IMG/VR virus record: IMGVR_UViG_3300046475_000120
Location: 1,183-65,182 of that record
Length of the DNA stretch: 64,000 nt
Source of the DNA: a virus
Lineage: Duplodnaviria; Caudoviricetes
Direction: 5' to 3' (one strand)
Shown piece by piece: positions 59,880-64,000 of this stretch (positions are counted from its first letter, which is position 1; the number at the start of each line of letters is the position of its first letter). Made by a program: the position numbers and the translations under genes. The notes under the pieces were generated by a model, which did not search any database, was not told the DNA's origin, and saw nothing but the letters and a program-made list of their open reading frames with translations.

Positions 59880-59897
59880 GAATAGCCGAGGTTGCCA

Positions 59898-62800
59898 GTG
59901 CCGACGAATCCGAATCCCTTCATGCGCTCGTCGTTCGACGCTCTTGCCGACCAGACGGCGGCGCCGGTCGAGCCCGTCGCGGTGCCGCAGCCGGCCGAGA
60001 TGCCGGAGCCGATGGCCGCGACGCCGGGGCTGGCCGTTGCCGTTCCTGCCGCCCCAGCGGTTGCCGTCCAGTCGCCGGTCGGCAAGCCCGACGCGCTGGC
60101 GCCGCCGCCCGACCTGCGCGGCGTGTTCGAAGGTTCCGCCAAGGCGTTCAACGTGCCGGTCAACGTCCTGATGGCGCTGGCGCACCAGGAGAGCAATTAC
60201 AATCCCCTGTCGGTGAACACCAGTTCGGGCGCGCAGGGCATCATGAACTACATGCCGGCCACCTCGAAATCGCTCGGCATCAACCCGTTCGACCCGAACG
60301 AGGCGATCCCCGCCGCCGCCAAGCAGCTGCGCGAACGGCTGGACAACGGCGCATCGATGGCCGACGCGGTAAAAGAACACTTCGCCGGGCCGAACCGGGG
60401 ATTGTGGAAGGACAAGACGGCGGCGTACGGCGACCAGGTGCTGTCGAAGGCGGGCCAGATCGGCGCCCTGCTGTACCCGGCCAATGGTACTGCTGGTGAA
60501 GAAGACGACGACGAGGCCGATGGTCCTGCGAAACCGGGAGAGCCGGTCAACCAGAACCGTTTTTCGGCCGCCATGTCGCGCCCGGACTACTATGCCAATT
60601 TCATTGCCCTGAACCCGCGCGCAACGCCCGACGCGATCCAGAACGCGATGGCGCAGTACGATGTCGATGCCGCCGCGCGCACCAAAAATGCCACCTCGCG
60701 CGTGCAGGACAAGTTCGCCCAGATGTCCAGCCCGGAAGCGGCGTTCAACGCGAAACTGAACGCGAAGCTGCAGGGCGACAACGAAGGTCTGGCGCAGGTG
60801 CTGCCGGCCAACGCGCAGCCGGCCAACCCGGTCAGCCAGACGGTAGCGCCCTCGACGGCAGCCACCATCGGCGCGAATATCACCGGCGGGGCGCTGAGCG
60901 GCCTGACCGGCGCCATGGCGGCCGGCGCCTCATTGATCGGAGACGATGCCACCGCCAAGGACATCGACGGCGCGCGCGCCCAGGTCGAGGCGCGCATGAA
61001 GGAACTGGGGGGAGACACCATCCTCGGCAAGGCGGCTTCACTGGTGGGTGGCGTCGCTCCCGCGCTGGCCGCGCCGGAAGGCGCCATGGCGCAACTGGCA
61101 GTCAATGCCGGCCTGTTCGCCCTGCCGGCGGCGCGCGACACCTATCACGCACAGATCGCCAAGGGCGCCAGCCAGACGCTGGCCGTCATCCACGCAGCGG
61201 AAGCGGCCGGCATCAACCTGGCCATGCCGATGGTGGCCACGCGCGGGCTCGGCGCGGTAGCGAATAAACTCGGCGCCGAGGGGCTGACCGGGATCGGCGG
61301 CGCAGCGGCGGGCATCGGCCAGGCCGCAGTCGAGGGTGTCGGCTTTTCGGCGGCCAACACGGCGCTCGACAAGGGCACCGACGTGCTGGCCGGCCAGCAG
61401 AACGATGCGCCGTGGATCGACCCGAAGGACATGGCGGCGCAGGCGCTCGGCTTTGGCGCCCTGCGCGGCGCGCACGCGCTGGCCGGTTCTCCAGCTGCCG
61501 TGCAGGAAGCTATCCCATCACCGGCACCGGCCGAAGCCGTCACTGGCCCGCTGACTGCCGCCGTGCATGCTGCCGCGCCCGCCGAACCCGCTCCCCTGCC
61601 GCGCGGTGCCTCGGTGGCCGACCAGCTGCGCGCTCTGCGTCCGGTCGATGCGCCCGCCGGCCCGCTGACCGATGCCCTGCACGGCGCCGCCGCTGCGCAC
61701 GATGCCAACCCGATCGATGCGCCGGAAATCCCGCAGGCGCCGCCCGCACCCCCGCCGATCGAGTCGGTGCATATCGACGACCTGCGCGGCCGCCTGAAAA
61801 CGGCGGTGGCCGCGATCAAGGAAAACCGCACGCCCGAACTGATCGTCGAGCGCAACCTGGTGCAAAAAGAGATCAACGCGCGCTCTAAAGAGGCGGCCGA
61901 CGAAACGGCGCAGCTGGCCGAGCAACCAGCGTCGACCGGCCCGTTCGACACGCGCGAGGAAGCGGTAAAAATGGCACCGCGCCTGGCCGAGCAGACGGCG
62001 ACGGTGCACGAGGTGGTCAACAGGGACGGCAAATTCGTCCTGCAACCTGTGAAGGAAGACGGCAATGGCGCAGTTCTACCTGAAGGAACCGCTGACGGAA
62101 GCGGCAGCGCTGGAACTGCTGCAGGCGCAAAACCGGCTGACGGTGCAGGATATCCGGGACCTGCAGATGTTCCTGGCGTCGACGGAGCCGATGCCGGCCG
62201 ACCTGTGGGACAAGTACAACCTGATCGTGTTCGCTCAGAGCCAGCCAAAAAGCCAGTACCTGCACTGAGCGAGGCGGAAACCAACCCGTACGCGACGCGC
62301 CGGTTCGCCAGTGCCGACGCCGCGCGCTCGTTCATGGACAAGAACAAGGTCGATGCGAATGGCTTTGAAGTCGTGCCGCACGGGTCGAAACAGTTCAAGA
62401 TCAAGCCGAAGGATCCCGCTGTCGCCGCGCTTGACGCCGCCGCGCATGAGGCGGCCACCAGCCCGCAGAACGACCTGCCGGAGCCGACCGACGCGCAGAA
62501 GGAGGCGGGTAATTACAAAAAAGGACACGTTACTGTCCACGGCCTCGACATCACGGTGGAGAACCCGCGCGGCAGCGAGCGCTCCGGCACCAGCCCGGAC
62601 GGCACCGCCTGGTCGCATGAAATGTCGGACCACTACGGCTACATCAAGCGCACCATCGGCGCCGACGACGAGCACGTCGACACTTACATCGGCCCGAAGC
62701 CGGAATCGGACAAGGTATTCGTGGTCGACCAGATCGACCAGCCGACCGGGAAATTCGACGAGCACAAGGTGATGATGGGCTATCCCGACGAGAAATCTGC

Positions 62801-64000
62801 GATCGATGCCTACAAGTCGAATTTTGACGACGGCTGGAAGGTTGGCCCCGTCACTGAAATGCACATCGACGACTTCAAGGCATGGCTGCGCGATGGCGAC
62901 ACGAAGCAGCCAGTGGGAGAAATGCCGGAGCCAGTGGCCAAAAAAGTGCCGGAAGTGGCACCAAAGGCTGCACCAACGCCGAAAGCCGAGCGCCTCAACG
63001 AAGCGCGCGCCAAGCACCAGCGCCAGGACGAAGCCGTTGCAAAGGCAGCGGAGAACATCGCCAAGCGTAAGGCAGCGGCGGAACCTGTTGCAGAACCTGT
63101 ACCGGCCGAAAAAGTGTCACTCTCGCTCGGCAAGCTGCCCAACTCGGCCGAGCCGATCACGGTGCGCGATGGCGTGGTGCATATCGGCGAATACGGCGTG
63201 CAGGATTACGACACCGGGGCCGACGTCACGGTGCCGAACGACGCCACGCCGCAGCAGATCCGCGACGCGCTGACCAAGGCCGGTGCCATCGGGCGCGGCA
63301 ACCGTATCTTCGGGATGCCGAAGGAAGCCGACACCGGGACGACCAAGGCGCCGCGCGCAGGCAAGGCGAAATCGGAGTCGGCGCGCGCGCAGGAACTGTA
63401 CGACCGCATCGGCGACGAGATGGTGGCGCAGCACAGCGACAAGGTCGGCACCGAAGCGATGCGCGCGCACCTCGACAAACTGGTGAAGGAAGACCCGAAG
63501 AAGTTTATCCAGTTGGCCGAGAAGCACATGGCCGACGCCGAAAAAGAAGGCGTCACGCTCAACGACATCACTGACCCCAAGGATACCCGCACCATCGAAG
63601 TCGATGGCGTGCGCCGCCCGATCCGCACCAGCGATGGCGAACTGGTCGCGCCGACGTTCGACGGACAGAAGGAATTCTGGCGCAACTATGCGGGCGAGGT
63701 GGACGAGAAGGGCCGTCCGATCATCGACCGCCAGCACGACATCGGCAGCGAGCAGTCGCGCGCCATGATGGCTGACGGACCGCTGGCGCGCATGGAGGAA
63801 CCGAAGCGCGTCGTGATTATGGCCGAACTCAAGCGCATGCAGCGGCTGCAGGCCTCCGGCAAGATGACGGCGGAAGCCTACCGCCTCAAGGTCGACGAAC
63901 TGATCGGCAAGATCGGCGAACGCAACGAGGCGCGCGAAAACGCCAAGGCAGTCGACAAGAAGCGCGGCCCGGACTGGGTCGAGGAACGGCTGATGCGCGC
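59898..64000 (+). CDS. Giant polyvalent virion protein, N-terminal part (3'-truncated): lytic transglycosylase + inorganic-pyrophosphatase-like domain
   Basis: GTG start with GAGG RBS, open to the window end; ALAHQESNYNP..SSGAQGIMNYMP SLT motif; ENPRGS.R..HYGYIKRT.GADDEHVD.YIGP..DEHKVMMG PPase-like motif. Confidence 0.88.
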   Translation, partial: MPTNPNPFMRSSFDALADQTAAPVEPVAVPQPAEMPEPMAATPGLAVAVPAAPAVAVQSPVGKPDALAPPPDLRGVFEGSAKAFNVPVNVLMALAHQESNYNPLSVNTSSGAQGIMNYMPATSKSLGINPFDPNEAIPAAAKQLRERLDNGASMADAVKEHFAGPNRGLWKDKTAAYGDQVLSKAGQIGALLYPANGTAGEEDDDEADGPAKPGEPVNQNRFSAAMSRPDYYANFIALNPRATPDAIQNAMAQYDVDAAARTKNATSRVQDKFAQMSSPEAAFNAKLNAKLQGDNEGLAQVLPANAQPANPVSQTVAPSTAATIGANITGGALSGLTGAMAAGASLIGDDATAKDIDGARAQVEARMKELGGDTILGKAASLVGGVAPALAAPEGAMAQLAVNAGLFALPAARDTYHAQIAKGASQTLAVIHAAEAAGINLAMPMVATRGLGAVANKLGAEGLTGIGGAAAGIGQAAVEGVGFSAANTALDKGTDVLAGQQNDAPWIDPKDMAAQALGFGALRGAHALAGSPAAVQEAIPSPAPAEAVTGPLTAAVHAAAPAEPAPLPRGASVADQLRALRPVDAPAGPLTDALHGAAAAHDANPIDAPEIPQAPPAPPPIESVHIDDLRGRLKTAVAAIKENRTPELIVERNLVQKEINARSKEAADETAQLAEQPASTGPFDTREEAVKMAPRLAEQTATVHEVVNRDGKFVLQPVKEDGNGAVLPEGTADGSGSAGTAAGAKPADGAGYPGPADVPGVDGADAGRPVGQVQPDRVRSEPAKKPVPALSEAETNPYATRRFASADAARSFMDKNKVDANGFEVVPHGSKQFKIKPKDPAVAALDAAAHEAATSPQNDLPEPTDAQKEAGNYKKGHVTVHGLDITVENPRGSERSGTSPDGTAWSHEMSDHYGYIKRTIGADDEHVDTYIGPKPESDKVFVVDQIDQPTGKFDEHKVMMGYPDEKSAIDAYKSNFDDGWKVGPVTEMHIDDFKAWLRDGDTKQPVGEMPEPVAKKVPEVAPKAAPTPKAERLNEARAKHQRQDEAVAKAAENIAKRKAAAEPVAEPVPAEKVSLSLGKLPNSAEPITVRDGVVHIGEYGVQDYDTGADVTVPNDATPQQIRDALTKAGAIGRGNRIFGMPKEADTGTTKAPRAGKAKSESARAQELYDRIGDEMVAQHSDKVGTEAMRAHLDKLVKEDPKKFIQLAEKHMADAEKEGVTLNDITDPKDTRTIEVDGVRRPIRTSDGELVAPTFDGQKEFWRNYAGEVDEKGRPIIDRQHDIGSEQSRAMMADGPLARMEEPKRVVIMAELKRMQRLQASGKMTAEAYRLKVDELIGKIGERNEARENAKAVDKKRGPDWVEERLMR
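62065..62268 (+). CDS. 67-aa gene nested in the +1 frame of the giant protein
   Basis: AAGGA RBS 8 nt upstream; about 58 of 67 codons end in G/C versus about one third in the host frame over the same span. Confidence 0.7.
   Translation: MAQFYLKEPLTEAAALELLQAQNRLTVQDIRDLQMFLASTEPMPADLWDKYNLIVFAQSQPKSQYLH

Follow-up and report, generated by a model that had tools for sequence, protein, structure and literature searches.

In the stretch of phage DNA analyzed here, which comprises 64,000 nucleotides and is referred to as the window, the segment 62065–62268 lies within the gene of a giant virion protein and looks, as far as sequence comparison can tell, like a real gene missed by annotation. The segment is likely to be a separately translated gene in a dual-coding stretch, whose two frames would serve different ends: the giant frame would specify a disordered linker of a 2,700-residue ejection protein, and the +1 frame a separate 67-residue protein, the latter probably being translated from its own Shine–Dalgarno (SD) sequence and ATG on the same late mRNA as the giant. 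The frame sharing is unusually clean, since one frame bears all the amino-acid constraint and the other avoids stops by the exclusion of T at one codon position.

The host gene and the reading frame embedded in it

The source record is 65,182 bp long and has a 127-bp direct terminal repeat, the window corresponding to its bases 1183–65182. When the record is circularised, the giant ORF extends to 2,700 codons and continues across the terminal repeat; an annotation of the linear record would therefore split the giant gene in two (59892–63998 and L092 129–4118). The gene is preceded by those for the terminase, the portal, the major head protein, a tail fibre and an internal virion protein and, next in the same upstream series, by an acyl-CoA N-acyltransferase gene, a PAPS-reductase-like gene and genes for virion proteins. 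The same order is found in Burkholderia phage Bcep22 and its relatives, in which the giant gene is called DarB-like. In addition to the domains listed in Table 1, the giant protein displays a weak ART-PolyVal match and, at residue 1435, an HExxH motif that has no Pfam match and is conserved in L001, the closest relative. The presence of SLT, InPase and ART-PolyVal-like domains and of HExxH within the 2,700 residues of a protein of the late virion module is what has been described for the polyvalent proteins of phages and conjugative elements (Iyer et al. 2017, PMC5512222). Judged by domain content and gene order, the host gene is that of a polyvalent ejection protein, belonging to an uncultured phage whose late gene order matches that of the Bcep22-like podoviruses.

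Table 1. Coordinates of the host gene, of the candidate nested gene with its surroundings, and of nested ORFs in other giant genes (positions without a prefix are those of the window)
Feature	Position	Strand	Basis or remark
Giant polyvalent virion gene, first 1,369 codons	59892..63998	+	ORF reading; DarB-like by PHROG
SLT (lytic transglycosylase) domain, giant residues 79-161	60126..60374	+	Pfam PF01464, E 3e-12
Small alpha/beta module directly before the linker, faint DUF2188-like match	61920..62054	+	sequence, Pfam
TGA closing the +1 frame 12 nt ahead of the nested ATG	62050..62052	+	sequence
Shine–Dalgarno-like AAGGAAG, 5-7 nt before the nested ATG	62053..62059	+	sequence; SD recurs in family
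Candidate nested gene, 67 codons + TGA, +1 frame of the giant	62065..62268	+	composition, selection, family
Linker in the giant frame, residues 725-793 (~68), Gly/Ala/Pro/Asp-rich	62064..62270	+	sequence not conserved, frame open
Small "NPY...F-x-I-K-P" module after the linker, also in L001 and L006	62277..62411	+	
InPase (type I pyrophosphatase-like) domain, giant residues 867-999	62490..62888	+	Pfam PF18823, E 1e-56
64-codon nested ORF (also among L042-L087, 35 loci)	L051:2501-2695		inside giant virion genes
64-codon nested ORF, unannotated in gene p69	KT898134.1 50936-51127		Aeromonas phage phiARM81mr
107-codon +1 ORF, Bcep22 gp75 (AY349011)	L091:14338-14661		sub-threshold TnpV match, E 0.045
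54-codon +1 ORF, Bcep22 gp75 (AY349011)	L091:12559-12723		in linker of DarB-like gene
Gene-like +1 ORF, 152 codons, nested GC3 0.83	L015:3512-3970		no Pfam match above threshold
Gene-like +1 ORF, 111 codons, nested GC3 0.83	L025:4487-4822		no Pfam match above threshold
+1 ORF before InPase	L015:2702-2932		weakly like the 64-codon family (E 0.04)

The original prediction, made from the letters of the window, had placed at 62065–62268 a hidden 67-residue ORF in the +1 frame of the giant gene, and the sequence bears this out: the ORF is complete, has its own start and its own stop and lies wholly within a longer ORF of the same strand in another frame, which is the architecture of an embedded gene pair. 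The AAGGA ribosome binding site assigned to it is also present, as part of AAGGAAG, although the spacer counted from AAGGA is 7 nt and not the 8 nt originally given. As had been counted, 58 of the 67 nested codons end in G or C, and the G+C content of the nested frame by codon position is 0.65/0.32/0.85. The predicted fall of the giant frame to about one third of G/C-ending codons over this span, and its subsequent recovery, are equally real: GC3 of the giant frame is 0.32 over the nested span as against 0.80 overall, returns to 0.83 in the first window past the nested stop and is never below 0.55 in any other 198-nt window of the giant gene. Across the span the giant frame does read as a Gly/Ala/Pro/Asp linker, and the PPase-like domain, expected about 200 nt downstream, begins with the InPase match 222 nt past the nested stop. 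A promoter-like site at 61945–61972 was dropped from consideration, not being conserved in L001.

Relatives, selection and alternative readings

The nested ORF belongs to a family of eight members including that of the window, the seven others being 31–75% identical to the window ORF in alignments and the weakest member, at 18% identity, having been joined through the profile only; these eight distinct members amount to roughly 5–6 independent lineages. L001, a 9.7-kb Logan contig encoding 69 residues about 74–75% identical to those of the window, was the single relative in an index of 5.8 billion proteins. An HMM search of 1.84 billion representative proteins added three members of 66–71 residues, a profile search one more, and two divergent ones came from six-frame HMM scanning of 80 IMG/VR loci that had been retrieved by way of their InPase domain. 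No further members emerged from viral, genome and metagenome contigs queried with single proteins and alignments, from tblastn against GenBank phages, or from a search of phages and IMG/VR with the linker region of the giant, and protein and locus searches yielded no free-standing copy of the family. The distribution is sporadic, the family being present in 2 of 50 whole records of InPase giants.

In all eight members the ORF lies in the +1 frame inside a long open giant frame that reads as a Gly/Ala/Pro/Asp-rich stretch; in L001, as in the others, the giant frame passes straight through. Nested-frame GC3 is 0.78–0.93 across the family. Each member starts with ATG preceded by GGAG, GAGG or AGGA at −16 to −5, the SD standing 5–9 nt before the ATG; by comparison, such a motif precedes 6.3% of 539 background ATGs of the same giant genes. 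Each member also ends in His-TGA. The last His is a constraint of the nested frame, for the same bases read in the giant frame give Ala/Thr-Leu and vary. The ATG of L001 is placed 6 nt (two codons) further upstream, and there a 6-nt insertion moves the SD along, so that the spacing is kept. With its frame switch, SD, ATG and His-TGA end found again in seven further sequences, the arrangement of the window is more than a chance product. The small ORF had been called by the gene callers of public collections in six assemblies.

The premise of the original prediction that selection acts on the nested frame is supported by the comparison of the two frames. The window and L001 are 82% identical over 198 ungapped nt, and pN/pS is 0.45 (0.38 after JC correction) in the nested frame, about 1.5 (1.59) in the giant frame and about 1.0 in the third frame; the corresponding values for the pair L003/L006 are 0.67, 1.87 and 1.03, so that the nested frame is below 1 and the giant frame above 1 in both pairs, it being understood that these are two pairwise comparisons of about 66 codons each and that overlapping frames in principle bias dN/dS. 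At the protein level the window and L001 agree in 75% of the nested-frame residues, as against 63% of those that the giant frame encodes over the same bases. In the same pair the modules of the giant that flank the segment have pN/pS of 0.45 and 0.52 with identities of 64% and 44%, the giant frame giving 0.45 over 108 aligned codons that include the module at 61920–62054; the nested protein, with its 75% identity, is better conserved than either module, and the constraint on it is accordingly no weaker than that on these folded parts of the giant.

The giant frame, open in all eight members, bears a constraint of a different kind. A T at a nested third position would begin a stop codon of the giant frame, and in the eight ORFs 12 such T are observed, where the codon usage of these genes would lead one to expect about 46. 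Upon synonymous redrawing of the nested codons from the same usage, the giant frame stays open in 13–48% of the trials per locus, the product over the loci being 1.5e-5. The comparison thus shows the nested frame to be under amino-acid selection and the giant frame to be constrained only to stay open, by the near-absence of T; both frames are accordingly maintained by selection, as in an embedded gene pair.

Other origins of this arrangement are conceivable. The giant ORF might really consist of three genes, its open read-through frame being an accident of high G+C; indeed, in several contigs the gene callers broke up the giant ORF on either side of the small gene, and a gene having few T-ending codons often leaves the −1 frame open, with the per-locus probabilities of 0.13–0.48 seen in the redrawing. 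The upstream part, however, is devoid of stop codons in 8 of 8 loci, it invariably shares its frame with the downstream part, and the latter lacks both an SD and a start of its own; because of this shared frame and of the lack of downstream start signals the three-gene reading is disfavored. Furthermore, the depletion of T at the third position goes beyond codon bias, the joint probability that all frames are open, about 1.5e-5, not yet taking the match of frames into account, so that the reading must be regarded as very improbable. Scarcely credible, in turn, is that the segment is no gene at all and represents either an assembly error or the relic of an in-frame segment shifted by two compensating indels. 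A recent compensated frameshift would indeed yield such a composition switch, but independent assemblies show the same arrangement, as do lineages diverged to as little as about 30% identity, and these independent, divergent copies exclude both an assembly error and a recent compensated frameshift. A relic, moreover, is hard to reconcile with a nested frame still under purifying selection and with the SD, ATG and stop found in each copy; a search of proteins of 126–2,000 residues retrieved no longer protein having the segment in frame, which is weak evidence in the same direction. The least probable of these readings is recoding, in which ribosomes of the giant would shift by +1 and terminate at 62268, the outcome being a shortened form of the giant that ends in a 67-residue tail. 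Upstream of the nested ORF, a stretch of the +1 frame is free of stops in L001 and L005; on the other hand, the frame is closed 12 nt before the ATG in the window and 14–20 codons before it in L003 and L004, and frameshift entry from the giant is unlikely in view of this closure in three loci. No conserved slippery site was seen, and initiation explains the conserved SD–ATG more simply. A separately translated gene in a dual-coding stretch is thus the reading retained here.

Directly after the nested gene, L001 contains about 150 extra bases with respect to the window (L001:785–931). These hold a 48-codon +1 ORF in the same frame as the nested gene, ending in ...LRLH-TGA, through which the frame-switched composition continues; it may be a decayed partial duplicate. 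A resemblance of this ORF, and of the 54-codon ORF of Bcep22, to the C-terminal half of the family was not borne out by the family HMM.

Nested frames in other giant genes and comparable systems

A scan of the fetched giants for GC3 frame switches flagged similar segments in many loci. Among them is a second family, an intact 64-codon +1 ORF with a GAGG SD and a His-TGA end, present in 35 loci of Aeromonas-type proviruses. The pN/pS values of its nested, giant and third frames are 0.40, 1.19 and 0.94, respectively, and its model has the same three-helix layout as the family of the window (see below); homology between the two families is unsupported (hhalign probability 0.6%). The two ORFs nested in gp75 of Bcep22 lie in linkers, have an AGGAGG SD and a nested GC3 of 0.85–0.89. 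The ORF at L015:2702–2932 has a stop seven codons before its terminal ...ARH-TGA and may be a decaying copy. Taken together, the unconstrained linkers of polyvalent proteins appear, from these sequences, to have served repeatedly as lodging sites for small genes.

Small genes set out of frame in much longer ones are known from other systems. In Bacillus subtilis, comS, the gene of a small regulatory protein, lies out of frame in the very long multi-module srfAB; the organism and the pathway are different, the host gene encodes a non-ribosomal peptide synthetase, and there is no sequence relation to the nested gene described here. A closer parallel is offered by the embedded spanin genes Rz/Rz1 of phage lambda (PMC5295617), which occur in Bcep22-like phages as well (PMC9144972): there, too, a larger phage late gene wholly encloses, in its +1 frame, a small gene that is complete and has a start of its own, and the stretches constrained in one frame coincide with unconstrained linker in the other. 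Rz1, however, is a lipoprotein that binds Rz, whereas the present 67-residue sequence has neither Cys nor hydrophobic N-terminus, as an o-spanin would, lacks a signal sequence and a lipobox, and is unrelated to Rz1 in sequence; furthermore, unlike Rz, the host protein is a multi-enzyme ejection protein encoded by 2,700 codons. The out-of-frame HNH insertion ("ShiLan domain") of actinophage DNA methylase genes (PMC11855218) is similar in that a whole gene is inserted out of frame, the host frame crosses it without meeting a stop, the added residues forming an extra loop or linker, and the distribution is sporadic. There the mobility is explained by the homing endonuclease that the insertion encodes, whereas the nested product of the window has no HNH or other nuclease motif.

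Nested or overlapping genes go unmentioned in the text of the founding paper on polyvalent proteins (PMC5512222), and no paper on genes nested in the linkers of these proteins was found in the searchable literature. In some phage genomes one fifth of the sequence goes to giant polyvalent or DarB-like proteins, each of which annotation treats as the product of a single gene. Should separately translated small genes be a regular feature of their linkers, phage gene counts as well as virion and infection proteomes would be incomplete, knock-outs and truncations of the giant gene would give confounded phenotypes, and it may be another frame that has shaped the sequence of the "disordered linkers" in these proteins.

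Predicted product and possible role

The 67-residue product is mildly acidic and contains no hydrophobic segment. From the eight-sequence alignment AlphaFold2 predicts a three-helix bundle (helices 12–21, 27–38 and 45–59; mean pLDDT 79), in which the N-terminus and the C-terminal tail are poorly ordered. Pfam, PHROGs and PADLOC returned nothing meaningful for the product; the TnpV profile (PF14198) was unmatched, and there was no Pfam family at E<=1 for P0002 or at E<=0.1 for P0006 and P0007. The sequence search of the PDB gave only a weak match to HopAB1 (E 0.047). With the model as the query, Foldseek found nothing in the PDB at E<=0.001 and the best hit of VIA-align wide had a Z of 4.3, which is within the noise for helical bundles, while the ESM Atlas provided a low-confidence model having only sigma-factor-like helical neighbors. 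The predicted three-helix bundle with its flexible, His-ended tail is more suggestive of a factor that binds proteins than of an enzyme or a DNA-binding protein.

The original prediction went further, proposing that the product is a cognate inhibitor or chaperone of the PPase-like domain or of another toxic domain of the giant. An antidote, inhibitor or chaperone dedicated to a specific neighboring domain would not lack potential targets, because the giant contains potentially harmful domains (the ART-PolyVal match and the HExxH at residue 1435), and the position of the gene is suggestive, inasmuch as it precedes InPase in the window, with the small module in between, and directly so in L005 and L019. 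The neighborhood, however, is not constant: the enzymatic domain that follows is ddrB-ParB-like and not InPase in L003 and even in L001, to which the window is most closely related, in L036 another domain intervenes, and the upstream modules of the giant differ in every lineage. Also in the analogous 64-codon family, phiARM81mr retains the nested gene but has after it a domain different from that of the proviruses. The constant linkage to one cognate domain that marks toxin–immunity and enzyme–inhibitor cassettes is therefore absent, the domains both before and after the nested gene being variable, and inhibition of the PPase-like domain in particular is disfavored; altogether this role is unlikely, and less probable than that of an accessory factor lodged in the linker.

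Lodging, the preferred reading, finds its basis in the sporadic occurrence of the family, in the variation of the neighboring domains and in the presence of unrelated nested genes in equivalent linkers of other giants; the linker would be a permissive site for small accessory genes. The nested gene would then be an accessory gene that is expressed late and that the giant gene carries along, and its product a small protein-binding factor that is not the partner of one adjacent domain. That the product is made in fixed linkage with the giant protein, also part of the original prediction, is plausible by way of the shared late mRNA. A bolder view, which we consider a long shot, is that small genes missed by annotation are widespread in the linkers of polyvalent proteins and that the His-ended three-helix proteins of both families are dedicated co-factors of the giants. 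Were this so, the His-terminal tail might restrain the HExxH peptidase of the giant, or its packaging, until virion assembly, and the nested position would couple synthesis in cis to the nascent giant protein. The more specific idea that the C-terminal His plugs the HExxH peptidase is weakened by p69 of phiARM81mr, which has no HExxH.

Just downstream of the nested gene and its linker, close relatives have exchanged domains. The window has InPase where L001 has the ParB-like domain, the swap being located after about position 62411, and after the nested stop InPase of L051 is replaced by another domain in KT898134. The linkers may be recombination joints for the exchange of cassettes in polyvalent genes.
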